From an uncultured bacterium (GTDB taxonomy: Bacteria; Armatimonadota; Abditibacteriia; Abditibacteriales; Abditibacteriaceae): a stretch of 64,000 nt of DNA. Where the stretch lies: assembly GCA_963843795.1 (NCBI GenBank), contig CAWJLW010000006.1, forward strand, positions 2,988,375-3,052,374. Reading direction: 5' to 3'. Position 1 is the stretch's first letter. Each line of letters opens with the position of its first letter. Position numbers and translations under genes: made by a program. Shown here one piece after another: positions 36,654 to 52,282 of this stretch. The notes beneath the pieces are model-generated. The model worked only from the letters and a program-made list of their open reading frames with translations, did not search any database and was not told the origin of the DNA.

Positions 36654-36691
36654 CAACAATGGCGCTGCAAGTACTTGCAGCGCCATTGTTG
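36654..36691. terminator. 38-bp perfect palindrome between convergent genes
   Basis: caacaatggcgctgcaagt|acttgcagcgccattgttg. Confidence 0.6.
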
Positions 36692-36701
36692 TCATTGAAT
36701 T

Positions 36702-37997
36702 TCAGCGCGGCACTTCGCCTAGCACGAAAAATGAACCGGTCACCAAAATCAAATCTTTTTCATCGGCAATTTGTCTCGCGCGTTCGAGCGCCGCACCGAC
36801 TTCGGACACGACCTCCACAACCGCATGGGGCCGCATTTCCCTGCGCGCTTCAGTAGCAAGAAATTGCGCATCAAGGGCGCGCGGATGTTGGGCTTGGGTA
36901 GCAATTAACACATCGACCTCCGGTGCAAGTATCTGCAGCATAGCTTGATAATCTTTATCTGCGCTAACACCGACTACCAAAATCACACGCTGCCATTCGC
37001 TGCGGCGTGTGGCAAGTACTTGCAGCAATTGTTCTACGCCGTCGGGATTATTGGCACCATCGACGACAATATCGGGCGCGCGATGGATGAACTCAAAACG
37101 GCCCGGAACACTCGCGAGTACTTGCGCTGGCGTTTCTTCTTCGAACTGCCAATCCATTTCCTGACAAAATGCGGCAGCGGCCATGCGCGCGGTTTGCAAG
37201 TTCAAACGTTGAAATTCGGGAGCATTGGGCTCAGGCAACTGTGCAACTTCGTTCCAGACGCGGGAACAATTTTCCAAATCGTTAGAAAATTCGAGAGCTC
37301 GGAAGGGCCACAAACGCGCGCTGATGTTGTCACAGTGTTCTCGAAAGATCGCAAGTACTTGCGGCTTGGTTTCGGCAGTCAAAAGAACGCGTTGTGGTCG
37401 GGCGATGCAGATTTTATCCGCAGCGATGAGTTCGATTGTATTGCCCAAGCGGTCGCAATGATCGAGCGCGACGTGCGTGATAACCGAAAGCACGGGTTCG
37501 GCAGCGTTGGTCGCGTCCCAGCGTCCGCCCAACCCAACTTCGACGACGGCTGCATCGACGTTTTGACGCGCGAAATGCCAGAAGGCTAAAAACGTCAGGG
37601 TTTCAAATTCGGTTGGCTGCTCGAGCGCACTTTCGACCGCGTTCAAATGCGGCAGGGCGTCCTGAAAAAGCGTTTCCAACGCGGCATCGGAAATCGAGCC
37701 GGAAAACAATTGGTTGTCGGCTTGTTGCGCCTGAATGATGCGCAAGCGCTCGTTCCAACGATAAAGATGTGGTGAAGTGTAAAGCCCGATGCGGCGATGG
37801 TGAGCGGCGAGCAAAGTCGCGAGAAATTGCGCGGTCGAGCCTTTGCCATTGGTGCCGCCGACGAGAATGGCTGGGTAAGAATTGATTGCGGACGCAATGG
37901 GCCGGGTTTCGAGCAGTGCGCGAATGCGTTCTAAGCCCGGACGAATGCCAAAGCGCTGCACACTGTCGAGATAAGCTGAAAATTTGATATTTGCCAT
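36702..37997 (-). CDS. folC: Folylpolyglutamate/dihydrofolate synthase
   Basis: GTNGKGST, YTSPHL, EVGLGGRWDATN, LDH..LG, PGRFE, VTGSFF. Confidence 0.93.
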   Translation of the reverse strand: MANIKFSAYLDSVQRFGIRPGLERIRALLETRPIASAINSYPAILVGGTNGKGSTAQFLATLLAAHHRRIGLYTSPHLYRWNERLRIIQAQQADNQLFSGSISDAALETLFQDALPHLNAVESALEQPTEFETLTFLAFWHFARQNVDAAVVEVGLGGRWDATNAAEPVLSVITHVALDHCDRLGNTIELIAADKICIARPQRVLLTAETKPQVLAIFREHCDNISARLWPFRALEFSNDLENCSRVWNEVAQLPEPNAPEFQRLNLQTARMAAAAFCQEMDWQFEEETPAQVLASVPGRFEFIHRAPDIVVDGANNPDGVEQLLQVLATRRSEWQRVILVVGVSADKDYQAMLQILAPEVDVLIATQAQHPRALDAQFLATEARREMRPHAVVEVVSEVGAALERARQIADEKDLILVTGSFFVLGEVPR

Positions 37998-38190: not shown

Positions 38191-41100
38191 ATGGCTTCAG
38201 CCAAAATGCCGGTTCGCGTTCCCTTGTTTCCCGCTTTGCTCGCCCTTGTTGCCTGTTTTGGTCTGGTGAGCCAATCATTTTCTCCACCTGCCGCCGCGCA
38301 AAGCGGTGCTGTACCCAAATCCGCTTTGGCATCGCGTTTACAAACCGACGTAAATGCATTGACTAAATTCCCATCGCGCGCACCGGGCACGCCGGGCAAT
38401 GCGCAAGCGGCGGCCTATATGCAGAATCGCTTCGCGCAGATTTTCGGCGCGGGCAACGTGCAAGTCGAAAATTACACAGTCACAGCTCCGGTTACTAAAA
38501 GCGCGACTTTGAACGGACAGCGCGTTTATCCGATTTATCCCAACGCCGTCGTGCCCTCGACCACACCTTTAGATGGCATCAGTGCGCCGATGATTTACGC
38601 GGGACAAGGTTTGCCGCAGAATTTCAACGGCCAGAAAGTCGAAGGCGCAATTGTAGTTCTGGAATTTAATTCCGGCTTGGGCTGGATTACCGCCGCCGAT
38701 TTGGGCGCGCGCGCCATTGTGTTTTTGGAGCCCGAGCAAACCGCAACCCAAACCCGTGGGCCCGGAACGCAAACCGCGCCCAGTTCGCGCGGCGAGGCCG
38801 AGCGCAAATTCGCCAGTTTGCCAATTGAAGTGCCCCGCTATTACGCTCCGCGCAACATCGTGGCAGGTTTACCTACCGGTGCTGGCAACCAAAATTCTGC
38901 AGATGCCACCGGCGCGACTGCGCTGGGCACAGGCATCTTGAAATCGGTGGTGCGCTGGGAGCGCGTGACCTGTCGCAATGTGCTGGGCACGATTCGCGGC
39001 ACGGATCCCAACATTGCGGGCAAACCGGGCGGCACGCTGATCATCGGCGGCTACTACGATTCGATGGCGATTACGCCCGACCTCGCGCCCGGAGCCGAAG
39101 CTGCGGGTAATGCGGCGGCATTGTTGGAATTAGCGCGCCAATTCAAGGCGCGCCCTCCCAAGTACTCGGTGCTGTTTTTGGCCGAAGGTGCACACCACAT
39201 CGCGCTGGCCGGTATGCGGAATTTCGCGGCAACGCACTTTCTGGATACGACTGGTAAGGCCGAAAAATCCGTAACGGAGCGCATTGATTCCTACAAAGGT
39301 TTTGTTGGTTTAGACCTCACTTCGCGCACGAACACGGTCGGCCTGTTCGCCAAATCTTCGTTCTACAACCAGATGACCGTTGGTGCGGAAAACATTCTGC
39401 TCAACCAGTTCGCGGATTTCGCGAAAACCCTGAATGCGCAGGCCGCGCGACTGGCCAAACAGCGCGGCGTGCGCGATGAAGAATTTTATGTCGATGGCGT
39501 GACGGGCCGTGAAGGCCGCACTTGGCGTTCTTATCTGCCCTCGCCGGTCGCGTTGGATTCCGAAGTGGCGACAATGGCACAAAAACCCGCGATTTCTTTC
39601 GCGACTGCCAATGATGCGCGCACCCTTCAAGACACGCCTTTTGATACTGCTGACCATCTAAATTACAATAACCTCGCCGGCCAAATTACGACCATTGCCA
39701 ACTTAATGAGCGGCGGCTTGCCAGATTTGAAGCGCTGGCCTGACGCAGGTGGCTTTTCGAAAATTTTTGGATATGCGGTCGGACGTAGCATTTATCGCAA
39801 CGTGGGTGCAGGTGCGTCTTTCCTGCCTTCCACGCCGCTGCCAGATGAGAAACTGTTGGCTGACGACATGCAGAAGCCCGGTGCAAAGCCGATGGACGCC
39901 AATACTCTGAAAAATGTGGAAGGCGCTCAAGCGGTGGCGTTTATTCTGGATCGCAATCGCGATTACAAAAGTTATTCGGGCGTGCGCGGTGCATTCATTG
40001 AACGCGCGACTTTTTCCAAGCCTTCCAAAGATGATAATCCGGTAGCGCAGTTCGTTTTCATCGGCCCACGCGTGGGCGACCCCAAAGGCGGTGGCACGCC
40101 GCAAAACGAAATCGAAGCCTATTCAATCGATAAAAATGGACGTATTTCGTTCGCGCCCGATATGGGTTCGGAACGCCAGCGCTTCTCGCCCAACTTCAAC
40201 AGCACAACCGCTTCAATAACCTACAAAGATGCTGCTCTGGGCCAGCTGGATGTTTCGGCTTCGGTGATTTGTTTTGAATCGCGCGCGATGGCGCTTTACG
40301 ATACGCTCGATCAGCGCTATTTCCAGATTCTGCGCGAAATGGTCGTTTTAGATGGGCAGACCGATGCCAACCCGGTGGAATACGGCTACATTCGCCCCGC
40401 TGTTGCGCCCGGCGCATCGGATGCTGAACCGGTGGCGATTGTATTTGGTAAGCCGGAAATGCGCTTTAAGCTCATCATGCAGATGGGGTTGTTGGGCAAA
40501 CGTTTGGTGCTGTTACAAACCGAACCTAGGGTCGGCAAAAATGCCGGTAAAATCGTTTTTGAAGGCGCGGGTTTCAAGATTGACGAAGGTGGAGGACAGG
40601 CCGTTTTACATGTCGCTTATCAGACGGCGCGCGATTTGTGGATTCTGGATCAGCAACGCATCGGGCTATTGAAAAAATTCGGCATCAATAACGGGCGTGT
40701 CGATACCCTGCACGGCGCAGCGGGCTGCGAGCAGGGCGATGGACCGGATAAATACGATTGTCCGACACCCCTTATCGCCGAACCCAACGGCGGCTCGATA
40801 CAGGCCGCCGAACGCGCGTTGGAAACTTTTCGCTACGACACGTTTTATCTCGAAGCGCGCCGCGCGTTTGGACTGGAATCGCGCGCTTATCCAGATGTGG
40901 AAGCGACCGCGCAAGACGTGCTCAAGGGCATTATTTTCTATCTCGCGTTGCTGTTGCCCTTTGCTTATTTCGTCGAACGCTTGTTGTTCGGTTCGCCTGA
41001 TATTCGCCGTCAAATCGCCGGTGCAGCAGGCGTGTTTTTGCTGATCTTCTTCGGCATTCGCTTTGTGCATCCGGCCTTTGAACTGGCCCTCACGCCGTTC

Positions 41101-43437
41101 ATCATTCTGCTTGCTTTTATCATTCTGGCGCTGACAGTTGTGGTAACCAGCTTCCTGTCTTCTAAATTCGAACAGGAAATCAAGCGGTTGAAGCAGGGCG
41201 TTCACTTCGCCGATGTGGGTCGTTTGTCGGCATTGGGTGCGGCGGTCGGCTTGGGCATCGCCAATATGCGACGCCGACCAGTCCGCACCGCTTTGACGTG
41301 CGTGACCTTGATTTTGCTGACTTTTACCGTCTTGAGTTTCACCAGCGTCACGGCCAACATTTCCAACTTTGAGCGCCCTTATGGTGACGGCAAGCGGCCA
41401 CCCGCTTACGAAGGTTTGATGGTACGTAACCCCGACTGGAGCGGAATGCAGTTGGCCGCAGTCAACTCGATGCGCAACGAATTCGCGCAGCGTTTTGGCA
41501 GCGTTTCGCCGCGCGCGTGGTATTTGTCGCGTGATCAAGGCGAAGCCTTGCAGCTCCGCGTCAACAACCTGAATGACCCCAACAAGTACTTCTACGCACC
41601 CGCATTGGTCGGTTTCACGCCCAGCGAAACCGGCCTAAATTCCCCTGTTCCCAAAACTGTTATCAAAGGCAACTGGTTCACCGGCGCGCGCGACGAAACG
41701 CTTTTACCGGTTTCAATGCTGCTTAAGCCCAGTGAACTGCGTGCGCGACGCCAAGCAGCGGCCCAGGCGCGTGGCGAAAAACTACCCGAAGTCACTCTTG
41801 GCACCGAAGGCGGAGACGTGCCACCCTTAGGCCTAACGCAGGACAACGCGATTGGCAGCAAAATTCAAGTTGCCGGAGAAACGATGCGCGTCATTGGCAT
41901 TTTCGATGACGACAAGCTCTATGCAGCACGCGATCTGGACGACGAACAATTCACGCCGGTCGATTACCAGAACGAACAGAACAAACAAACCCAAACCTCG
42001 ACCAGCTTATCAGGCCAGAAGGGCGAAGAAACTCAAGTGCAGCGCTATCAGCACATGGATGCCAACGCGCTGCTCCTGATTCCTTACGAAACCACGCTCA
42101 CACTTGGTGGCTCCACGCGTAGCGTGGCGGCTGGTTTCCGCGATTCGGCTTCGGGCATCTCCGAGTTGCGCCAACTGATGAACCGCGCTGCACTGGGCAT
42201 TTTCGGCGCCACCAAAAACGATAATGGAAAGCTGGTCGCTGCCCTTTATTCATCAGTTGAAACTTCGAGCTACGAAGGTTTCGCCGCGCTGGTGATTCCG
42301 ATCACCATCGCCGCCTTAATTATCGCTAACACCATGCTGGGCAGTGTTTTCGAGCGCACACGCGAAATCGGAATCTATTCTTCGGTTGGATTGGCACCGA
42401 TTCACGTTGCGGCTTTGTTCATAGCCGAGGCGACGGTGTACGCGGTTCTGGGTTCGATTTCGGGTTACCTTATCGCGCAATTAGTGGCCAAAGTCGTGAC
42501 CAGCACGGGGGTTTTAGAAGGCATCACGCTCAATTACTCCTCGTCTTCAGCGGTTATCGCGACTTTGATTGTAATGCTGACGGTTTTGCTTTCGACCTTG
42601 TATCCGGCGTGGGCGGCCAGTCGTTTGTCGCAGCCAGACGCCGACCGCAAATGGAAAGTCAACGAGCCCATTGGCGACATCTGGCGCTTCCAGTTCCCCT
42701 TCACGGTTTCGGGCTTGCAGCCTCTGGGCGTCGCGCAGTTCTTAGCCGACTTTTTTGAAGCGCACACTGATACTTCGGTCGGTAAATTCTACACCGATCG
42801 CGTTTACTTTACGGCGCTGCCCTTGCGCGATGCCGTTGATACCTTGAACGCCGGATTGGACGAAGATATCGTGCGCGCGGCGATGGAAGCGCGCGGCCTG
42901 GAAACCAAAAAACTCACCCGCACGCAAAAATCGAATGCCAGAAAATTGGCCGCCAACGATGACGACGGCGGAGATACGAATGGTGCAAATACCAACGGTG
43001 CGAGCGCTAAATTCAATGTGCCGGATGCAGCGGCAACCGAGCGCGCGAACCCTGAACAGCAATCGCCGATTATCGCGCTGGATGCGATTCCGGCTCCGCC
43101 CGACATTGAGGTTTATCGCTTGGCGATGCGCGTGTGGCTGGCTCCGTTCGACATGGGCGTTTCGCAAGATACCGATATCGTTTTGCTGCCTGCCAAGGAG
43201 CCAGGCCTGTATGAATTGCAGCTGCGCTTGGTGCGTCAGTCGGGCGAAATTGCGGCGTGGAAACGCGTCAATCGCCAATTCATCGGCGACTTGCGCAAGC
43301 AGTTGTTGGTATGGCGCACAGTGAGCCGCGAAGGTCAGCAGGAATATATTCTCAAGGGCCGCGCAACGGTCAGCGGTCATCAAGACGAAGTTCCCAGCGA
43401 AGGTCCAGGCGCGGCGGTCGGTGTGGGCACCAATTAA
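38191..43437 (+). CDS. Giant membrane protein: signal peptide, PA domain, degenerate M28 peptidase-like domain and FtsX/MacB-like permease
   Basis: PSRAPG.PGN, PA-like IYAGQG...GAIVVL, YYDS..PDLAPGAE..ALLELAR, NMRRRPVRTALT, ERTREIGIYSSVG, LYPAWAASRL. The start (38191 vs 38206) is uncertain. Confidence 0.8.
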   Translation: MASAKMPVRVPLFPALLALVACFGLVSQSFSPPAAAQSGAVPKSALASRLQTDVNALTKFPSRAPGTPGNAQAAAYMQNRFAQIFGAGNVQVENYTVTAPVTKSATLNGQRVYPIYPNAVVPSTTPLDGISAPMIYAGQGLPQNFNGQKVEGAIVVLEFNSGLGWITAADLGARAIVFLEPEQTATQTRGPGTQTAPSSRGEAERKFASLPIEVPRYYAPRNIVAGLPTGAGNQNSADATGATALGTGILKSVVRWERVTCRNVLGTIRGTDPNIAGKPGGTLIIGGYYDSMAITPDLAPGAEAAGNAAALLELARQFKARPPKYSVLFLAEGAHHIALAGMRNFAATHFLDTTGKAEKSVTERIDSYKGFVGLDLTSRTNTVGLFAKSSFYNQMTVGAENILLNQFADFAKTLNAQAARLAKQRGVRDEEFYVDGVTGREGRTWRSYLPSPVALDSEVATMAQKPAISFATANDARTLQDTPFDTADHLNYNNLAGQITTIANLMSGGLPDLKRWPDAGGFSKIFGYAVGRSIYRNVGAGASFLPSTPLPDEKLLADDMQKPGAKPMDANTLKNVEGAQAVAFILDRNRDYKSYSGVRGAFIERATFSKPSKDDNPVAQFVFIGPRVGDPKGGGTPQNEIEAYSIDKNGRISFAPDMGSERQRFSPNFNSTTASITYKDAALGQLDVSASVICFESRAMALYDTLDQRYFQILREMVVLDGQTDANPVEYGYIRPAVAPGASDAEPVAIVFGKPEMRFKLIMQMGLLGKRLVLLQTEPRVGKNAGKIVFEGAGFKIDEGGGQAVLHVAYQTARDLWILDQQRIGLLKKFGINNGRVDTLHGAAGCEQGDGPDKYDCPTPLIAEPNGGSIQAAERALETFRYDTFYLEARRAFGLESRAYPDVEATAQDVLKGIIFYLALLLPFAYFVERLLFGSPDIRRQIAGAAGVFLLIFFGIRFVHPAFELALTPFIILLAFIILALTVVVTSFLSSKFEQEIKRLKQGVHFADVGRLSALGAAVGLGIANMRRRPVRTALTCVTLILLTFTVLSFTSVTANISNFERPYGDGKRPPAYEGLMVRNPDWSGMQLAAVNSMRNEFAQRFGSVSPRAWYLSRDQGEALQLRVNNLNDPNKYFYAPALVGFTPSETGLNSPVPKTVIKGNWFTGARDETLLPVSMLLKPSELRARRQAAAQARGEKLPEVTLGTEGGDVPPLGLTQDNAIGSKIQVAGETMRVIGIFDDDKLYAARDLDDEQFTPVDYQNEQNKQTQTSTSLSGQKGEETQVQRYQHMDANALLLIPYETTLTLGGSTRSVAAGFRDSASGISELRQLMNRAALGIFGATKNDNGKLVAALYSSVETSSYEGFAALVIPITIAALIIANTMLGSVFERTREIGIYSSVGLAPIHVAALFIAEATVYAVLGSISGYLIAQLVAKVVTSTGVLEGITLNYSSSSAVIATLIVMLTVLLSTLYPAWAASRLSQPDADRKWKVNEPIGDIWRFQFPFTVSGLQPLGVAQFLADFFEAHTDTSVGKFYTDRVYFTALPLRDAVDTLNAGLDEDIVRAAMEARGLETKKLTRTQKSNARKLAANDDDGGDTNGANTNGASAKFNVPDAAATERANPEQQSPIIALDAIPAPPDIEVYRLAMRVWLAPFDMGVSQDTDIVLLPAKEPGLYELQLRLVRQSGEIAAWKRVNRQFIGDLRKQLLVWRTVSREGQQEYILKGRATVSGHQDEVPSEGPGAAVGVGTN

Positions 43438-43533
43438 AAATCACCGGCAAGTACTTGCAGCGCGTTAAATTTTCGCCTGCAAGTACTTGCAGACGAAAAT
43501 GTGTGGAGATAGGGTTTAGGGAGTAGCGACAGC

Positions 43534-45612
43534 ATGGCATTGAAGAACGATGATCCGATGGATCGCATGACGGTCACGCAGGAAGAAGAGCGGCCATTGG
43601 GGCCGCTTAACGTAGACGAGGGCCTGGGGCCGTCGCCCTCTGGCGACCCGACTGTTGACGCCGACGAATATATCGACGGTTTCAGTTGGCGCACAGTTTT
43701 TGGCGCGCTGTTCATCGGTTTCATCATGATGCCAGGCGCGATTTACCTTTCGCTCGTTGCCGGTCAGGGCATGGGCCCCGCTGCTGAATGGGTGACGATC
43801 ATCCTCTTCATGGAAGTGGCGCGCCGCTCCTATCAAACCTTGAAAAAGCAGGAAATTTATCTGCTTTACTACATTGGCGCTTCCTTGACTTCTCAAGTTG
43901 GCGCGCTGGCTCTCACCGGCGGCGCATTCGCCAACTTGGTGATGAACCAGTATGTTATCAACTCGCCAGTTTCGCAGGCGCTTGGCATTACGGAAGGCTT
44001 GAAGCAATCGGCTTATGGTGGGCGCTGGGTCGTTCCGCCACCCGATTCTCCCGCGCTGCTGGAGCGCACTTTCCTCCATCCCGACTGGATTCCCGCCATC
44101 ACGCTTTTGATGCTGAGTCAGGTTTTTGGCCGCATGCAGTCGTGGGGGTTGGGTTATGTGATGTTTCGCATCACTTCCGATATCGAACGTCTGGCCTTTC
44201 CCCTTGCACCGATTGCCGCTGAAGGCGCGACCGCTCTGGCCGAATCGAGTTCGCAAAAAGAAGGCTGGCGCTGGCGCATCTTCTCGATTGGTTCAATGAT
44301 TGGCGTTGGCTGGGGCTTGCTTTATATCTTGCTGCCCTCAGTCACCGGCCTGGTTTTCTCGCAACCCATTACGATTGTCACCAATCCGTTTATCGACCTC
44401 ACTTCCAACACGCAGAAAATTTTGCCCGGCGCTTTGACCGGCCTGGGCACCGATTTGGGTCAGGTTTTGATCGGTTTCGTGCTGCCGTTGCCGATTGTAG
44501 TCGGCACTTTTATCGCTTCATTCGCCTGTCACATCGTGGCCAACCCGTTTTTGCAACGCGCAGGAATTTTGAAAGAATGGACGCCCGGTTTGGACTTGAT
44601 TCAAACCCAGATCGTTAACAACTTCGATTTTTGGCTTTCGTTCGGCATTGGCACTTCGGTGATCGTGGCTTTGGTGGGCATTATTTCGGTAATCGGCGCG
44701 CTGGCCAAACGCAAGCGCGATTCGGCCAGCGGCGTAGCCAACGTGCGCTTGAAACCACCACCGGGTCGCGGTGATATTCCGATCTGGATTTCGCTTCTGG
44801 TATGGGCTATTGGCACGGTCGCGTTCATCATCATTTGCCACCAGTTGGTGCCTGGTTTCCCAGTCGGTATTCTGTTCTTTTTCGGTTTCGTATGGACGCC
44901 GATTTTCTCGTACATCAACGCGCGCATGGCGGGTATGGCCGGACAAAGCGTTTCAATTCCTTACGTGCGCGAAGCCTCGTTCATGATGGCCGGTTATCAA
45001 AAAGTCGATATCTGGTTCGCACCGATTCCTCTGGCCGATTACGGCGGCATGGCGCAACATTTCCGCACTGTTGAACTCACGCGCACCAAATTCATTTCGA
45101 TTGTCAAAGTTGAACTTTTGATGCTGCCGATTATGCTGGTTTGCTCGTTCCTGTTCTGGAGCTTCATCTGGCGCTTGGCTCCAATTCCGTCGGCCAACTA
45201 TGCGTATGCCGCCAAATTTTGGCCCGCGCACGCGCAGCAATCTGCTTTGTGGATGACCGCTAACCGACCCGGTGCCGACAACGTGCTGTTGCAATCCATC
45301 AAGCCGACTTACATCGCCGCCGGTGGCGCCGCCGCTCTGCTCTCTTACGGATTAATTGCGATTACCGGCCTGCCGCAATTGTTGTTCTACGGCCTGATTT
45401 CCGGCACGCACGCGCTGCCCGCGATGGCGATTCCGATGATGATCGGCGCGATGCTGGGCCGCTATTATTTCGAGAAGCGCTACGGCGTCGAAAACTGGCG
45501 CGCCTTCGCTCCGGTTCTGGTCGCTGGCTATTACTGCGGCATGGGCTTGATCGGCATGGCCGCTGTCGCACTCGCGCTCTTGTCGAAATCAGTTTCACGC
45601 CTACCGTTTTAG
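43534..45612 (+). CDS. OPT/YSL-like multi-pass membrane transporter
   Basis: 692-aa hydrophobic protein; FSWRTVFGALFIG..MMP.AIYL.L, LKKQE, IERLAFPLAP, PPPGRGD. Confidence 0.65.
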   Translation: MALKNDDPMDRMTVTQEEERPLGPLNVDEGLGPSPSGDPTVDADEYIDGFSWRTVFGALFIGFIMMPGAIYLSLVAGQGMGPAAEWVTIILFMEVARRSYQTLKKQEIYLLYYIGASLTSQVGALALTGGAFANLVMNQYVINSPVSQALGITEGLKQSAYGGRWVVPPPDSPALLERTFLHPDWIPAITLLMLSQVFGRMQSWGLGYVMFRITSDIERLAFPLAPIAAEGATALAESSSQKEGWRWRIFSIGSMIGVGWGLLYILLPSVTGLVFSQPITIVTNPFIDLTSNTQKILPGALTGLGTDLGQVLIGFVLPLPIVVGTFIASFACHIVANPFLQRAGILKEWTPGLDLIQTQIVNNFDFWLSFGIGTSVIVALVGIISVIGALAKRKRDSASGVANVRLKPPPGRGDIPIWISLLVWAIGTVAFIIICHQLVPGFPVGILFFFGFVWTPIFSYINARMAGMAGQSVSIPYVREASFMMAGYQKVDIWFAPIPLADYGGMAQHFRTVELTRTKFISIVKVELLMLPIMLVCSFLFWSFIWRLAPIPSANYAYAAKFWPAHAQQSALWMTANRPGADNVLLQSIKPTYIAAGGAAALLSYGLIAITGLPQLLFYGLISGTHALPAMAIPMMIGAMLGRYYFEKRYGVENWRAFAPVLVAGYYCGMGLIGMAAVALALLSKSVSRLPF

Positions 45613-45620
45613 CGAAAGTT

Positions 45621-45672
45621 CAAAACTAAAAAAGCGCGCTGCAAGTACTTGCAGCGCGCTTTTTTAGTTTTG
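45621..45672 (+). terminator. 52-bp perfect palindrome with T tail ending the two-gene transporter operon
   Basis: caaaactaaaaaagcgcgctgcaagt|acttgcagcgcgcttttttagttttg. Confidence 0.72.
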
Positions 45673-45707: not shown

Positions 45708-46871
45708 ATGAAATCCATCACCCGCCCGTTCGCCGTGTTGCTCGCAGCATCCAGCTTTCTGCTACCGCAAATGCTGCAAATTGCGCGTGCACAGCCCGAC
45801 GAAACTGCGCCAAAAACCGCCAATCCGCCTACCGTTGATGCGCAAAAAGCGATGGATGAGGCGATGAAAACTACACTCGACAAGCTTAGAACGATGACTG
45901 TGGAAGAGATGCGCGCCTATACGCGCGAGATGCAGGAAGAAATGCTGCGCTCGCAATTGTCGCGGCAAGGTTTCAACGATTTGGAAATGCAGGAAATCGT
46001 CATTGATTTTCTGCACCAGCAAGACGAAGCTCGCCAAAGTACCCGCATTGCCGCCGCTCGTTTGCGCGATGCTTTGATGAACGCCCAAATGACGGGGGCC
46101 AAACCCCAAACTTCGCCGGAGCAATGGATGATTCTATTGGCCGCGTTGCACAATGCTGCCGACACCGAGCGGGAACGGCGCACGCGCGCAACGGAAAAAT
46201 TATCGCAAACGCTCAAGTTGAATGAGCAGCCGCGTTTGGACGCGACACTGAGATTAGCAGGTGTCATCGGTGACGAAATTTGGTACATCGGCGATGCTTT
46301 CAGCGGTATGAGCGCATTGAGCACTTTGCCCCTGCCCGCCGCGCAGCCAAAATTCAGCGCGGCTGAATTCGATAAGGGCGCACAAATGGGTCTCGAATTT
46401 GGAAAAAAATTCGCGACCATGACGCCCGAGCAAATACGCGATTATTTGCGCGAAATTCAAGCAGATGCACTGCGAAAAATCTTGACGGCCAATGGTTTCA
46501 GCGAGGAAAAAATGCAAATCACCGTTCTCGATTTCGTGCGCACAGAAACTGCTGCGCGCGCAGAAATTCGCTTGCTGGCCGCTCGTCTGCGCGATGCCGC
46601 CGCCAACCCGCAAGCCGACGAATGGAATTTGCTGCAATTGAGCGTGCAGATGCAAACGGCGAAAGACAACACCATCGCACGCCTGGCAGTCGCGACCGAT
46701 GAACTGGGTAAAAAGCTTGGTTTGCCGGAAAAGCCGCGTTTGATCGCTCTGCTACATTTGTATGGATTTATCGGCAGCGAAACACAAAGCTTCGCCGATG
46801 CTTTGACGAGCGGCAGCGCAGTCGCACTTTTGCCGACACCTGCCGAAATCAAGGCTTTGCCCGCGCAATAA
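45708..46871 (+). CDS. Secreted helical hypothetical protein with tandem ~170-aa duplication
   Basis: Signal peptide; MTVEEMR..LR..GF..AARLRDA..PRL..L.G.IG occurs twice. Confidence 0.75.
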   Translation: MKSITRPFAVLLAASSFLLPQMLQIARAQPDETAPKTANPPTVDAQKAMDEAMKTTLDKLRTMTVEEMRAYTREMQEEMLRSQLSRQGFNDLEMQEIVIDFLHQQDEARQSTRIAAARLRDALMNAQMTGAKPQTSPEQWMILLAALHNAADTERERRTRATEKLSQTLKLNEQPRLDATLRLAGVIGDEIWYIGDAFSGMSALSTLPLPAAQPKFSAAEFDKGAQMGLEFGKKFATMTPEQIRDYLREIQADALRKILTANGFSEEKMQITVLDFVRTETAARAEIRLLAARLRDAAANPQADEWNLLQLSVQMQTAKDNTIARLAVATDELGKKLGLPEKPRLIALLHLYGFIGSETQSFADALTSGSAVALLPTPAEIKALPAQ

Positions 46872-46918
46872 CGCCTTGCAAGTACTTGCGGTGCAATGGC
46901 AGCTTGTAAACTGGGCGG

Positions 46919-47809
46919 ATGCACATTCAATGTAAAGCTCCGGTGCGCGTCGATTTTGCGGGCGCGTGGACGGACGTTAAATTCTTTGCCGATGCCTTCG
47001 GCGGAGCGACGGTCAACGCCGGAATTAATCATTATGTCACCGGCCAAACGCGCAGTGGCGCGCACGCGCCAGGCGAAGGCATTTGCGTCAATTACGAAAC
47101 CGAAATCCCTGCCGGTTCGGGCCTGGGAACTTCATCCGCCCTCAATGTGGCGTGGCTTTCTCTGGCGCGCGGACATCAGCCGCGCAATCGCGAAGAACGC
47201 GGCCAAATTGCCGAGCAAGCTTATCAAGTCGAAACCGTATTGGGCATTTTAGGCGGCAAACAAGATCAATACGCCGCGGCCTTTGGTGGCTTTCACTTGT
47301 ATGAATTCGAGGCCGATAAAGTGCGCGCGATTCCGATTAATATCACGCGTGAAAGCGCTGGCGAACTGAATTCGCTTCTGACGCTTTGCTACACCGGACA
47401 GGCGCGATTGTCGTCGAATCTGCACTCGAATGTGTGGAATGCGTTCCGCGCGGGCAACCCCGCAGTCGTACAATCGTTGTTTGCACTGCGCGAAGCCGCT
47501 TATCGTGCCCGCGATATTTTGGAGTGCGCCGACTGGGACGCGTTCGGGCCGTTATTACAGCATCAACAAAATTGCGCCTCGCAGTTGGACGCCAGCATTT
47601 CCAATGCGCGCATCGCAGAAATTTTTCAGTTGGTCGCGCCGCACACAATGGGCGGAAAATGTTGTGGTGCAGGCGGAGGCGGCTGTATTTTATTCGCCTC
47701 GCCAGATAGTAAATCGCAACAACTCGCCGCGCAGAAGTTACGTGCGCACGACATTCGCGTCATCGATTTTCAGTGGGATTTCGATGGCCTGACTTTAACC
47801 CAATACTGA
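46919..47809 (+). CDS. GHMP kinase (HddA/sugar kinase-like)
   Basis: APVRVDFAGAWTD, PAGSGLGTSS, GKQDQY, GAGGGG. Confidence 0.88.
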   Translation: MHIQCKAPVRVDFAGAWTDVKFFADAFGGATVNAGINHYVTGQTRSGAHAPGEGICVNYETEIPAGSGLGTSSALNVAWLSLARGHQPRNREERGQIAEQAYQVETVLGILGGKQDQYAAAFGGFHLYEFEADKVRAIPINITRESAGELNSLLTLCYTGQARLSSNLHSNVWNAFRAGNPAVVQSLFALREAAYRARDILECADWDAFGPLLQHQQNCASQLDASISNARIAEIFQLVAPHTMGGKCCGAGGGGCILFASPDSKSQQLAAQKLRAHDIRVIDFQWDFDGLTLTQY

Positions 47810-47884
47810 CGCCCGCAAGTACTTGCGGGCGCATCGGCAGCCACTGCCAGTACTTACAAAGCAAACTCCTCACTTTATTCCGTT

Positions 47885-48328
47885 ATGAATCGTTTCGTTT
47901 TCGTCCCATTTTTCGCTCTTACTTCAATTTTCACCCCCCAAATTCAAGCCGCACCAACCGGACAAACCACTGCTGCAAAGAAAACCGTCGCGACGCGCGC
48001 TGCGGTGAAATCTGTCGTGCTAAGCAAAGGTTTCGCGAGTAAACCGCTCGAAATCACCAAGCAATTTTCACCCAAAGACGCCGAACTTCATGCAGTTGTA
48101 ACTTTAGATAAGCCCAGCAGCGGCGATCACATTAAAATTATCTGGATTATCGAAAACGCTGGCGGCGTGAGAAACTACCGCTTCGCGCGAAAAGTCGTCA
48201 CGACGAAGAATAATCGTGTCGTCCATTTCGCTACCACGTTCAAAGGCGATTGGCCGCGCGGCAAATATCGCGTCGATGTGTATTCCAACGGAATGCGTTC
48301 TGGCCAAGCCTATTTTCACGTCGAATAA
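47885..48328 (+). CDS. Secreted hypothetical protein (Ig-like beta sandwich)
   Basis: Signal peptide; WPRGKYRVDVYSNG. Confidence 0.7.
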   Translation: MNRFVFVPFFALTSIFTPQIQAAPTGQTTAAKKTVATRAAVKSVVLSKGFASKPLEITKQFSPKDAELHAVVTLDKPSSGDHIKIIWIIENAGGVRNYRFARKVVTTKNNRVVHFATTFKGDWPRGKYRVDVYSNGMRSGQAYFHVE

Positions 48329-48487
48329 ATTCAATTTCGACTCAGAAAATTGAATTTAAAGAAATGCTGGCGCTGGCTGTTGGTCAACGTTAACAATCAT
48401 TCTATTTTTGCCGCAGTGCAGTTCGACATCGGTAAAGCCAAACAGTGTGCTGCAAGTACTTGCAGCGCGTGTTTTCAGTTGATGCTT

Positions 48488-50314
48488 TTACGGTAATTTA
48501 AACTCGACGGTTTTCATCTGTCCGGCTTTGTCCAGCGAAACTTTTTGCGTGGCGCGCTGGCCGTTCTTGGTGACAACGATTTCGTAATCGCCCAGAAAGG
48601 CGCGCGTTTGCAGTGTGCCATCGGCTGCGCTGGGCGCAAGGAGATTGGTGCGCCATTGTTTCTGCACCAAATCGAGCCAGACTTGACCGTTGGGTTTGGG
48701 CGTCCAATCGCGCTTCCACAGCGCGGCGTCGGGCGCGTAATGACGCCCTTCCCAAAATCCCCACATCAGCACGCCATTCACTGCGGGATGGCTGAACATC
48801 GCGGTCAAAAAGTCGCGCGTGAAATCGGCTTGCAAGGCTTCGCTGGGAACTTGCACATCGAATTCAGTGATTTGAATCGGCAAATTGAACTTCGACAGAT
48901 CATCCAGAATTTCCAACATCCTTACCGGCGGCGTCAAATCGGAGCCGAAGTGACCTTGAATTCCGATTCCGTCGATGGGCGCCTTTTCTTTTTGGAGAAA
49001 CGCGATGGTATCTGAAAAATGCTTCTGATGCGCGCGATCATTGCCGCCCGACGCCAAAATCCCGTAATCGTTGAGATATAAGCGCGCTTGCGGATCGGCG
49101 CGGCGCGCGGCCCGAAACCATTCGCTTTGGGCTGATGGCCCCAGCAAATCAATGATGTCGTGATTTTTATACGGTTCGTTCAACACGTCCCAATCGTGCA
49201 ACTGACCGCGCAGCGCGCTCACTTCGTCGGTGATATGAGCCGCCATCGCGCGCCTCACCGCGTCGGGATCGCCTTTCATGTCTTGCAATTGCGAGGGCGA
49301 ATGTTTCCAGCTCGGCCACACCAAAACGTGACCGCGCGCTTCGATTCCGGCTTCGCGCAGCCATTTGAGCGCTTGCTGTGGCGTTTCGCGGTCGGCTTTC
49401 CATCTATCCCATTTCAAATCGTTCTCGAACACGATGCGATTGAATTGCGACTTCACCATTTCCTGATATTTGCGGTCGGCGGCATCGCTCGAAATCAACC
49501 CTTTGGCGCTCACGGCTGAGCCGAACGCGAACGCTTGTCGCGTTTGCCGAATCGTAATTTCCGCGCCCGAAACCGGGTGTCCGGCGCGGTCGCGCACGCT
49601 GATTTTCAAATCGCCCTTGCGAATTTTTTCGATACGTTCCTGCGCCGCTTTGCGCCAGGCGGCATTGGGTTCGTTGCCCGCGTAAGTGAGTTTGGTGGCT
49701 GGTAGCGATTCTTTCGCCACACTTTTGGCGTAATTGAGCAGCGAAATTCCGGCGATTTCCACGATTTGCGGCCCGTAACCCAAACGCAAATTCATCACAG
49801 CTTCGCCCGGCGCGTAATCGTCTGCCGCACGAAATGGGAAATCGAAGCGTTTCCACGTCGTGCCCACGCTGGTTTCATAGCCGAACGAGCGCTTGAAGTC
49901 GGGCGTCGCCTGTTCAAAAGTGAAACCGATAAAGCCTTCCTGCATCGGCGATTCGATGGTGCGCGCCCAAAACGACGCCAGTAAAATATCGCCTTTGGCA
50001 ATCGGCTCCACGTTGCGCGACGCAAGTTGAATGTCGTAAGGGCGCGGCGGCGGAACCATGGTGCGCACGCGCAAAGCGCGCTCGAAATCGGGCGTTTTGG
50101 CATCGACAGTTGTGACCTGAGCATCGCCCGCTTTGGGGCCACCCATTTTGAAACTCGATAGCGTATCGGCGGGCAGCAGAGAAATTGCGTTGCCAGCGCT
50201 CTTGGAGGTTTTGACTTCAATAGCACTCGTTTCGGGAACTTGAGCGCACGAGGCGACGGTGTGTGTGGACATGAGAATTAACCACGCACTGTGTGACCAG
50301 AGGGAAAATTTCAT
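48488..50314 (-). CDS. Secreted GH10 glycoside hydrolase (endo-xylanase-like) with N-terminal CBM-like domain
   Basis: FENDLKW, RGHVLVW, WDVLNEP, GIGIQGH, ITEFD, WGFW. Confidence 0.9.
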   Translation of the reverse strand: MKFSLWSHSAWLILMSTHTVASCAQVPETSAIEVKTSKSAGNAISLLPADTLSSFKMGGPKAGDAQVTTVDAKTPDFERALRVRTMVPPPRPYDIQLASRNVEPIAKGDILLASFWARTIESPMQEGFIGFTFEQATPDFKRSFGYETSVGTTWKRFDFPFRAADDYAPGEAVMNLRLGYGPQIVEIAGISLLNYAKSVAKESLPATKLTYAGNEPNAAWRKAAQERIEKIRKGDLKISVRDRAGHPVSGAEITIRQTRQAFAFGSAVSAKGLISSDAADRKYQEMVKSQFNRIVFENDLKWDRWKADRETPQQALKWLREAGIEARGHVLVWPSWKHSPSQLQDMKGDPDAVRRAMAAHITDEVSALRGQLHDWDVLNEPYKNHDIIDLLGPSAQSEWFRAARRADPQARLYLNDYGILASGGNDRAHQKHFSDTIAFLQKEKAPIDGIGIQGHFGSDLTPPVRMLEILDDLSKFNLPIQITEFDVQVPSEALQADFTRDFLTAMFSHPAVNGVLMWGFWEGRHYAPDAALWKRDWTPKPNGQVWLDLVQKQWRTNLLAPSAADGTLQTRAFLGDYEIVVTKNGQRATQKVSLDKAGQMKTVEFKLP

Positions 50315-50390
50315 AAGTTTTCGGAGGCCAATTTGGGTTTATCGGGCCCTGCAAGTACTTGCAGGGCTGGAGAAATGAAAACACTGCCAT

Positions 50391-51164
50391 TTAATAAGTT
50401 TGTCCGTCGCTGACATGGAAAGTGGGATCGTTGCCAGATTCCGCGAAGGGACGTTCGCGACCCCACACTTTGGAACTGGTAGTCGCGGTTTCGGCTTTGA
50501 ACCATTTAGCATGTCCATCGGCGAACAAGAAGTTGGAACCTTCCAAATGACGCAGCAGTTGTCCGCTGCCCACTGTCGCGCCTCTGCCGCCGGTCGGCGT
50601 GCCGCCGGAAAACGCGCTCGTCTGCGTAACGGCGTTGCCGGGCGCACATTCGTAAACGTGGATGGTCAGCGAAGCGTATTCCAACGCCGACAAATTGACT
50701 TCCGGCATATTGCCCGTGCCTCGCCCCATCAAATTATTGTAGCCATAATCGGTGAAACCGACTTGCGTCGAATCGGGATTCGGCCCCATCGAATCGCTGG
50801 GACATTGCAAAAGTTGCGTGCTCTTGGTGTAGGGATACAGGGCGTCCGCCCAACCGTAAGGATACGTATAAGGCGGAGCTTTGGTCGCGCCCGACAATGT
50901 CGATAACTGCAAACGCGGGAATCTTTCGTCGTAATCCTGCGTGTATTGCATGAAACCCAAGCCCATCTGCTTCATGTTGCTTAAGCACGAAGTCTTGCGC
51001 GCATTCTCACGCGCTCGGGCAAAAACCGGAAACAAAATCGCCGCTAAGATAGCAATAATGGCGATGACAACTAACAGCTCGATGAGCGTGAAACCTTTGG
51101 CTTTGGCATCACAGCGCGGTTTTAGGTTGGTGACGAAACGCGAGGCAATAACAGAATTTGACAT
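50391..51164 (-). CDS. DUF1559 prepilin-type N-methylation / H-X9-DG domain protein
   Basis: [70 protein letters not shown]. Confidence 0.92.
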
Positions 51165-51235
51165 AACGATCTCCTTTGGTTGGGCATTATAAACGCCGAA
51201 AACAAGTTTGAAAATAACTTTGTATCGTGTGGCAA

Positions 51236-52282
51236 TCACGGAGCAAATGCGGCAGTGCTTTGACGTACAGCGAGTTCACCGCGCAGCGTGCGCAGACGGA
51301 ATGGTTCCTGGCAATCGCCGTTCAAACGCTGCATCAGCAGATCGACAACGCTCTGTGCGATTTCATCGACAGGATGCGAAACGCTGGTCAGCGGCACGCT
51401 GGCGTAACGCGCAATGGGTCGATCATCGTGTCCGACCACCGAAACATCTTCGGGGACGCGAAAACCGGCATCTTGCAACTGGGATATAAAGGCGACGGCA
51501 GCGAAATCATTGACGATGCACACCGCTGTAGGCTTATGCAGTAGATCGAGAAAATACTGCGCCATGCGGACGCCATCGTCTTCAAATTCGCCGTAAGAAT
51601 CGCTGCCAAAAAGCCATTCTTCGCGCGGCTGCAATTCGTGTTCACCCAACGCGCGCGTGAGTCCTTCCAAGCGCACTGGAGTTGGACGCGGACAGCTCAC
51701 TTCAAAAAAACCAATGTCGCGGTGTCCAAGATCGAGCAAATGTTTGGCAGCTTGATAAGTGTTGTCGGCACGGTCGAAAACAACTTGGTCGCATTTGCAG
51801 GTTACAGAACGGTCGTAGCAAATTAAAACGCCTCCTTCGGCACGATAGCCTTCCAAAGCATCCAAAACTTCGAGCGGTAAGTCGGTGGTGTTACAAATAA
51901 TGGCGCGCGGGCGCTGCTGACACAGCAAACGTATTTCGCGCACCGCGTTTAACGCATTACTTTTGTCTGGATAGTTACAAACATGAATTGGCACATCGAA
52001 GCCTTGATTCGCCAACAATTTGCGTATTGCCTTGATTTTGCGCGTGCCTACACTTAAATCCAAATCTAACGTGAAAAGCCCGATGCTGTGGCTCAAACCT
52101 TTGCCCTGCAAGCGGCGCGCGTTCGCGTTGGGCTCGAAACCCAATTCGTTCGCTACCTGCAAAATCATCGCTTTGGTCGTGTCTGCCAAACGACCGTTGC
52201 CAGTCAAAGCCGCCGATACTGCTGACTTGGAAACGCCCGCAGCTAACGCCACATCCCGAATCGTCACTGCACTTTTAAGCAT
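51236..52282 (-). CDS. LacI family transcriptional regulator
   Basis: [44 protein letters not shown]. Confidence 0.93.

Follow-up and report, generated by a model that had tools for sequence, protein, structure and literature searches.

Two adjacent genes encode a giant FtsX-type subunit and an OPT-fold membrane protein

We analyzed a window of 64,000 nucleotides (the whole stretch of DNA under study) from the 4.3-Mb genome of an uncultured bacterium of the family Abditibacteriaceae (Armatimonadota). The closest named homologs of the gene pair described here come from the same family, and one public homolog is labeled Abditibacterium utsteinense, which shows that the system has hosts that are harmless and in culture. 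The first gene of the pair (positions 38191..43437, + strand) encodes a giant subunit of 1748 aa when counted from its ATG, and a protein search found it to be identical to one public 1748-aa protein; an alternative TTG start at 37984 would overlap the start of the divergently oriented folC upstream. The second gene (43534..45612, + strand) encodes a membrane protein of 692 aa and is present as a single copy in the genome. Downstream of the pair lie a gene for a 387-aa protein and then a GHMP kinase, both of which were rejected as operon members because they are not kept beside the pair in the gene maps described below. A palindrome search found two copies of GCAAGTACTTGC between the two genes (43447..43490), and a 22-bp hairpin with A and T tracts, centered on the same palindrome, follows the second gene (45623..45670). 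This hairpin, which the first-pass annotation of the DNA had read as a strong terminator, is real, with a folding energy of -34.1 kcal/mol, but it was not among the calls of a terminator scan of the window. The palindrome GCAAGTACTTGC occurs in 2567 copies genome-wide, with 48 core matches within the window; being built on it, the hairpin is not specific to this locus; it is a plausible terminator and may act in both directions.

The ORF list, Pfam, hydropathy, and an AlphaFold model together give the order of regions in the giant subunit, all of them on the + strand: a signal peptide (signal-like segment at residues 8 to 26), a PA-insert M28-fold head with a remodeled site (residues ~40 to 515; 38308..39735), a further extracytoplasmic region that is first beta-rich and then helical (516 to 905; 39736..40905), three extra, strongly conserved transmembrane (TM) helices (910 to 985; 40918..41145), a MacB/FtsX-type module (41293..42600), and a conserved C-terminal cytoplasmic domain with a lineage-specific insert, delimited in the alignment of homologs (~1484 to 1722; 42640..43356). 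The module consists of TM1, a periplasmic core domain, and TM2 to TM4 with an ERTREIG coupling motif (residue 1388), and its helices appear in the hydropathy profile at 1035 to 1053 and 1365 to 1470. FtsX (PF02687; residues 1366 to 1479; E = 1e-13) was the sole Pfam family found in the giant subunit, whose profile also aligns to MacB over residues 270 to 458 and 470 to 655, and the coupling motif is nearly invariant in the alignment of its homologs. The protein therefore has what is expected of a type VII ABC subunit, an FtsX module of four TM helices whose first two are separated by a periplasmic domain. The idea that the three extra helices are a degenerate second FtsX repeat was rejected, as they gave no profile match (probability 0.07%). 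For the C-terminal domain, a search of PDB sequences found no credible match and Pfam gave nothing consistent. Both ORFs and the anatomy first read from the sequence alone (signal peptide, PA insert and M28-like domain, three TM helices, and FtsX-type permease) were thus borne out by Pfam, hydropathy, and the model.

The 692-aa protein matched no family in Pfam, PF03169 included, or in NCBIfam; weak precomputed matches to PF03169 are present on 11 of 120 homologs and in 15% of its Atlas cluster. Its profile likewise found no credible match among PDB sequences. However, its predicted model (pLDDT 89.5) matches barley YS1 and nothing else (PDB codes 7wsr and 7wst; Foldseek E = 9e-12 and 1e-11; TM 0.58 to 0.69; next match at E = 0.017), at 12 to 13% identity, so that the OPT/YSL-like label proposed earlier is right at the level of the fold. 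Conservation of this protein, here called the core OPT protein, is high, with a mean column identity of 41%.

A peptidase-fold head with a remodeled site

For residues 40 to 905, an alignment of 73 rows yielded an AlphaFold model of high confidence (pLDDT 91.9; pTM 0.93). Residues ~40 to 516 of the model match PA-containing M28 aminopeptidases in searches with Foldseek and VIA-align (best matches, 2ek8 at E = 3e-22 and Z values of 26.6 for 1rtq and 26.4 for 2ek8), the M28 domain filling the results of the fold searches. The motif replacements reported in the first-pass annotation are present in the alignment: HxD is YYD (Y288-Y-D290), GADD is GAEA (G-A-E303-A), and EE is HH (H335-H336). Site statistics were compiled from 228 full-length homologs aligned as a diverse set of 133 and a close set of 96, with the query in both. 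Position 335, that of the general base, is His in 131 of the 133 diverse and 95 of the 96 close homologs and Glu in none of the 228; position 336, a Zn-ligand Glu in active enzymes, is mostly Phe or His. At the position of the first Zn-ligand His, the diverse set has Tyr in 96 members, Phe in 15, and His in 10, and at that of the last Zn-ligand His, 202 of the 228 homologs have Asp. Since 335 is His rather than Glu, the first His is mostly Tyr, and the last His is mostly Asp, the canonical two-zinc M28 peptidase site is, on the evidence of the alignment, absent from the giant subunit. The head has the fold of an active M28 aminopeptidase and lacks both the general-base Glu of the EE motif and the full set of canonical Zn ligands. 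An intact canonical site, the finding named at the outset as speaking against the proposed uptake system, was not seen in the alignment.

The pocket itself is strongly conserved. Among the 133 diverse homologs, D290 is kept in 132, D485 in 130, R477 in 128, and D375 in 122, and the position of E303 is Glu or Asp in 115, its alignment to the bridging position being ambiguous; since the GAEA stretch lacks one residue that 2ek8 has, E303 may occupy the position of the bridging Asp. The remodeled site comprises Y288, D290, E303, H335, D375, E458, R477, D481, and D485, and it is possible that E303, H335, D375, and D481 form a rebuilt metal site in this pocket. Compared with the PA-domain M28 aminopeptidases (2ek8; BSAP/YwaD, 6hc6; Aeromonas AAP, 1rtq), the head shares the M28 fold with its PA insert but differs in the invariant His for the general-base Glu, in the replacement of the first and last His as above, and in being fused to an ABC permease. 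The loss of catalytic residues is a feature in common with inactive M28 ectodomains (nicalin, nicastrin, the transferrin receptor, and GPAA1), of which nicalin also resembles the head in the sequence of the M28 core.

On a special relationship to nicalin, the searches gave mixed results. A profile of the M28 core only, run against PDB sequences, placed nicalin first at 43.4 bits, in effect tied with YwaD at 42.9 bits, and other peptidases at no more than 35.7 bits. In contrast, the full head profile favored bacterial PA-aminopeptidases (94 and 82 bits) over nicalin (50 bits); it aligns over nicalin residues 89 to 509, and the two share a short insert before GA[DE]. Bacterial enzymes also ranked first in both fold searches of the head, and neither nicalin nor nicastrin was among the best 50 matches listed in either.

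A six-gene operon in relatives is split into three loci in the Abditibacteriaceae

Gene maps were drawn for 40 fetched regions and the window and for 80 loci from a genome collection; operon counts rest on the 59 of these 80 loci with at least 6 kb downstream, the other 21 being too short to judge. A recurring operon was recovered with the order giant subunit, OPT-like protein, an unknown protein of ~320 aa, a PqqD-like protein, a small FtsX protein, and a LolD-type ATPase. All six genes are present at 40 of the 59 well-flanked loci, the ATPase at 44, and the OPT-like gene at 50, and at 9 the giant gene has no OPT-like neighbor. Such a survey had been suggested along with the first reading of the locus, and it identified the ATPase as a conserved partner. 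In the Abditibacteriaceae, only the giant and OPT-like genes stay adjacent (10 of 10 relatives). Profiles of the operon genes retrieved the other four elsewhere in the genome under study, so that the six genes form three loci: the PqqD-like protein (C6:3465071-3465478), the small FtsX (C6:3465677-3466282), and the ATPase (C6:3466326-3467117) are contiguous (C6:3465071-3467117), and the ~320-aa protein is encoded separately (C6:3102536-3103591). The ATPase scores 422 bits against its operon profile, versus 286 for the next paralog. Hence, the observation that no ATPase is adjacent holds locally, but a cognate ATPase is encoded elsewhere in this genome and within the operon of most relatives. 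The three contiguous genes sit behind rnpA-yidC-jag in all 10 Abditibacteriaceae examined and at none of 11 split loci outside the family; we rejected this neighborhood as a general feature and ascribe it to one ancestral rearrangement. The PqqD-like protein has the PqqD/RRE domain (PF05402) above the Pfam cutoff, and the ~320-aa protein found no credible match among PDB sequences. In the operon maps, there was no conserved periplasmic adaptor, TolC, or LolA-like gene and no conserved kinase, regulator, or cyclase, nor was a conserved precursor peptide or modifying-enzyme gene found among ORFs of at least 60 aa in 41 loci.

With a cognate LolD/MacB-type ATPase and a second FtsX chain (44 of the 59 loci; orthologs in the genome under study), the set has the remaining components of a type VII ABC system. 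It is like LolCDE, MacB, FtsEX, and YtrEF in the FtsX/MacB four-helix module with its periplasmic core domain and coupling motif, in the second and smaller FtsX chain, and in the type of ATPase. It is unlike them in that the giant subunit bears an 870-residue head with the M28 fold, has three additional helices, and ends in a cytoplasmic domain; in that the partner FtsX is usually ~200 aa with almost no periplasmic domain; and in its conserved OPT-fold, PqqD-like, and ~320-aa partners. These components bear directly on the proposal made in the first-pass annotation, in which the giant subunit captures cargo and hands it, without ATP, to the adjacent secondary transporter. That the two genes remain adjacent even where the operon is split, and that the OPT fold was confirmed by the model, fits such a pair. 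Nevertheless, the same genome encodes a cognate ATPase and small FtsX, the phylum-wide distribution of the small FtsX follows that of the pair (see below), the coupling motif is nearly invariant, and at the 9 loci mentioned above the giant gene lacks an OPT-like neighbor. A two-gene receptor-permease is therefore largely refuted by the small FtsX, LolD-type ATPase, PqqD-like, and ~320-aa proteins that share the operon in most relatives, and we give it very little credence.

The six genes are gained and lost together with the DUF6785 permease family

Presence profiles were obtained from the same sample of 151 Armatimonadota genomes. The giant gene is present in 126 of these and the OPT-like gene in 127, as expected if the pair co-occurs, and the single genome with the latter and without the former has its OPT-like gene at a contig start. 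DUF6785, a permease of the multicopy DUF6785/6784 family encoded by a gene separate from that of the core OPT protein, has a distribution identical to that of the OPT-like gene: 127 genomes have both, and the remaining 24 have neither. The small FtsX was detected at a strict cutoff in 122 genomes, all inside the 127, and the PqqD-like protein in 130, of which 126 are strong matches inside the 127; the other 4, in negative genomes, are weak and generic. As a control, the family DUF1559 is present in 149 of the 151 genomes, and on that ground the DUF1559 pilin-like proteins were rejected as a dependent partner. The 24 negative genomes are spread over nine families, of which six are mixed, and some of them are genomes of 5 to 9 Mb that keep DUF1559; a sensitive profile recovered only ordinary FtsX permeases from the five negatives retested (5/5). 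Because the genomes are related, the 127/24 split amounts to a small number of joint losses (approximately six to nine) and not to 151 independent tests. In a second phylum, sampled by 65 small incomplete MAGs, 57 have the giant gene, 60 have DUF6785, and 55 have both. As a separate observation, Atlas taxon labels alone hint at archaeal members of the system.

Copy numbers and domain architecture add to this picture. The genome under study has one giant gene versus 6 DUF6785 genes, and five relatives picked for their near-complete assemblies have 10 to 57 DUF6785 matches each; three Fimbriimonadaceae-type genomes (G111, G138, and G147) keep the whole machine with a single DUF6785 gene each. 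In one fusion (P0363), a whole giant subunit is followed by DUF6785 and DUF6784, with DUF6785 directly after the C-terminal domain; its cluster has 56 members, several of them full length, and the named members are labeled Latescibacterota. DUF6785 and the core OPT protein are weakly alike in a profile-profile comparison (hhalign probability, 18%; P = 0.0014; 246 columns), an ERLxFP motif is common to their consensus lines, and one Atlas OPT cluster consists to 19% of DUF6785 proteins; Pfam OPT had no match in the 24 DUF6785 proteins scanned, and a search of PDB sequences with DUF6785 gave no credible match.

From these genomic patterns, DUF6785 appears to be dependent on the six-gene set. As the pair is gained and lost with its partner genes and with the DUF6785 family, one ATP-driven machine is likely, and a shared energizing module is the simplest explanation for the occurrence of a single machine alongside numerous dispersed clients, for their exact co-loss, and for the fusion. 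Accordingly, our leading explanation, for which we see the chances as evenly balanced, is that the six-gene set forms one ATP-driven machine that would serve as the shared energizing module of dispersed DUF6785 permeases, most of them probably importers of sugars or sugar derivatives. Counting against it are the weak link between DUF6785 and the core OPT protein, the upkeep of the whole machine for one DUF6785 gene in the three Fimbriimonadaceae-type genomes, and the ATPase-free transport by YS1 (see below). Moreover, the described type VII ABC systems act, to our knowledge, on the periplasmic side, by mechanotransmission and with no transmembrane pore, and we know of none that is an importer.

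Joint loss shows dependence and not its kind, because a role in assembly or quality control would give an equal pattern. The six genes might then form a biogenesis machine that inserts, folds, or pairs DUF6785 proteins, which would themselves be ordinary proton-coupled transporters, and the head would be nicalin-like, as in the eukaryotic multipass translocon. The co-loss and the fusion fit this equally well, and the first rank of nicalin with the core profile, the alignment of the full profile over residues 89 to 509 of nicalin, and the position of three of the genes behind rnpA-yidC-jag are in its favor. Yet the whole-head profile prefers bacterial PA-aminopeptidases, nicalin and nicastrin are missing from the best 50 matches listed in both fold searches, and the yidC link does not extend to the split loci outside the Abditibacteriaceae. 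Moreover, we know of no precedent for an ATP-driven machine that folds a single permease family, and on balance we consider assembly unlikely. PMC11186639 concerns the eukaryotic BOS complex.

Alternatively, the six proteins could be a self-contained peptide transporter or exporter that uses the PqqD/RRE-like protein to bind a peptide, the core OPT protein to carry it across the membrane, and the head to bind or trim it on the outer side, with DUF6785 co-occurring for other reasons. The PqqD domain, the peptide-related character of the OPT family and of the M28 fold, and the conservation of the core OPT protein, which is as expected for a fixed substrate, are in its favor; however, it leaves the exact co-loss and the fusion with DUF6785 unexplained, and the operon maps show no conserved precursor or modifying-enzyme gene among ORFs of at least 60 aa, making it, in our judgment, improbable. 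A further alternative is a sensing or gating device, whose head binds an outside ligand and whose ATP turnover switches DUF6785 on or off without powering it. The invariant non-catalytic pocket of the head (H335, D290, D485, and R477) and the two cytoplasmic accessory proteins would suit such a device, but the operon has no conserved kinase, regulator, or cyclase, and for a device with a solely regulatory role one would expect freer loss than the presence profiles show; we think it quite improbable.

Gene neighborhoods of DUF6785 show a carbohydrate bias

In the genome under study, two of the DUF6785 genes lie in a run with LacI, NAD dehydrogenase, and TIM-barrel isomerase genes, and one lies behind a sugar-type ABC operon. 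We surveyed 40 regions from the five relatives, picked among the higher-scoring of 122 matches, and scanned 80 co-oriented neighbors. Glycoside hydrolases (GH), carbohydrate esterases (CE), or carbohydrate-binding modules (CBM) account for 11 of the 80, namely, GH130, GH66, two GH32, two GH43, GH2, GH4, GH95, a glucuronyl esterase, and a CBM4/9 protein. Of 69 control genes taken from these five genomes, 1 belongs to such a class (Fisher P = 0.006). LacI regulators, DUF1559 pilins, sugar-acid enolases, and TIM-barrel isomerases also recur beside DUF6785. Given that the control genes come from housekeeping-rich regions and that 69 of the 80 neighbors are not CAZymes, these data support a carbohydrate bias only. 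Among the cargoes proposed earlier (peptides, glycans, or metal chelates), the neighborhoods favor carbohydrates over the other two and suggest that most DUF6785 permeases probably import sugars or sugar derivatives. A study of Fervidibacter sacchari (F. sacchari; PMC11535203) mentions an OPT-superfamily transporter and M28 peptidases: the OPT-labeled WP_018195293.1, whose tie to the core OPT protein is putative, is a hypothetical protein transcribed on eight polysaccharides, and its proteome signal does not change across five of them (adjusted P = 0.84). Also expressed in the same study are a PqqD protein and an FtsX permease whose accessions are near-consecutive to WP_018195293.1; their tie to the machine is likewise putative, and none of these expression data are counted here as evidence.

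A candidate mechanism for the proposed shared ATP-driven module

If the six-gene set is indeed an energizing module, the FtsX module of the giant subunit and the small FtsX would, by analogy with LolCDE, form a pair with an ATPase dimer. The core OPT protein would dock on the giant subunit and pair with an exchangeable DUF6785 subunit, in the way that YS1 dimerizes via its scaffold domain, and ATP-driven movement would reset or drive the elevator domain of the DUF6785 subunit. The remodeled head would bind cargo or a partner rather than cut peptides, and the PqqD-like and ~320-aa proteins may be cytoplasmic adaptors. A complex prediction for two membrane pieces of the giant subunit (residues 897 to 1058 and 1355 to 1545) with the core OPT protein, run without controls, scored 0.25 against a mark of 0.32 and is weighed neither for nor against this arrangement.

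The nearest parallels resemble this arrangement in part. Group II ECF transporters have a shared EcfAA'T module and exchangeable S-components. The logic would be alike, with one ATP module per genome and many dispersed, specific membrane subunits that are occasionally fused or clustered, and the genomic pattern fits such sharing; in contrast, the motor is of type VII, the clients are permeases of ~650 aa, and no parts are homologous, with no Pfam match to EcfT/CbiQ or to an S-component among the components scanned. As described in PMC9691689, barley YS1 is a stand-alone proton symporter with no need of an ATPase and forms a scaffold-mediated homodimer, for which an elevator mechanism is proposed. 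The 692-aa protein has the YS1 fold but, unlike YS1, is genetically tied to an ABC motor.

Implications

Literature searches, whose coverage excluded most subscription papers and all bioRxiv supplements, found no description of the system or of DUF6785, in keeping with the original impression of an uncharacterized architecture. To that impression the present analysis adds the three-locus state of the system in the Abditibacteriaceae, a co-loss with DUF6785 that was followed genome by genome and compared with a control family, and the bias toward carbohydrate functions around DUF6785 genes. A large orphan family of permeases, with 1 to ~50 genes per genome, is thereby linked to one specific machine. 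Should that machine act in assembly, multipass proteins would have a bacterial machine for their biogenesis, one that carries a nicalin-like head. Should it energize its clients, it would represent a new coupling of ATP to an elevator-type transporter. As a more tentative extension, which we rate as somewhat doubtful, it may define a new class of primary importers, in which an ABC motor of type VII powers an elevator heterodimer of OPT fold that combines a constant subunit with any of up to ~50 exchangeable DUF6785 subunits, with a pseudo-peptidase head that is maybe a prokaryotic relative of nicalin, and which would be the main uncharacterized route of sugar uptake in Armatimonadota and other little-studied phyla. 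Energizing by a shared module, if true, would account for the uptake of many different sugars by polysaccharide-degrading Armatimonadota.

Components of the system encoded away from the pair

The genes for the PqqD-like protein, the small FtsX subunit and the LolD-type ATPase lie in the yidC-jag locus of the same genome (locus L151, 3320-11250, corresponding to positions 3461319-3469249 of contig C6 of G000). In all 10 Abditibacteriaceae examined, this three-gene insertion follows rnpA-yidC-jag, and in 9 of these 10 its far side is bounded by gmk-coaBC. The unknown protein of the system (351 aa) is encoded at a further locus (L152, 7537-8592); its family is characterized by a G-W-Q-G-like start, which is repeated, and by conserved Cys/His residues, and searches of Pfam and PDB with this protein returned no match.

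Genes near the pair and a genome-wide palindrome

Downstream of the pair (window 45708-48328) are genes for a secreted-looking 387-aa protein of unknown function, a GHMP kinase nearest to heptose-7-phosphate/fucose kinases (score below the cut-off), and an unknown 147-aa product; conservation of these three genes next to the pair was not found in relatives. Consecutive genes on the minus strand (window 48488-52282) encode a LacI regulator, a DUF1559 pilin-like protein and a GH10 hydrolase, a sugar-locus pattern found elsewhere beside genes of the DUF6785 permease family, with the permease absent here. That family reaches approximately 50 genes on the chromosome of another Armatimonadota genome (G133; 4.6 Mb), several of them apparently split or frameshifted.

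The palindrome GCAAGTACTTGC (e.g., window 36667-36678, 45641-45652 and 48452-48463) occurs in 2,567 copies across the whole 4.3-Mb genome, both in spacers and inside genes; its 10-base core had no matches in 18 loci (~20 kb each) from other Armatimonadota, 10 of them Abditibacteriaceae.

Variants of the system in relatives

In divergent copies of the system (family f17; loci L063, L064 and L065) there are two genes for LolD-type ATPases, and the small FtsX is longer. Four giant homologs of 2,400 to 3,050 aa (P0305, P0314, P0318 and P0281) contain Big_5 Ig-like repeats or LysM inserts within the head; these additions suggest variable surface reach or cell-wall anchoring.
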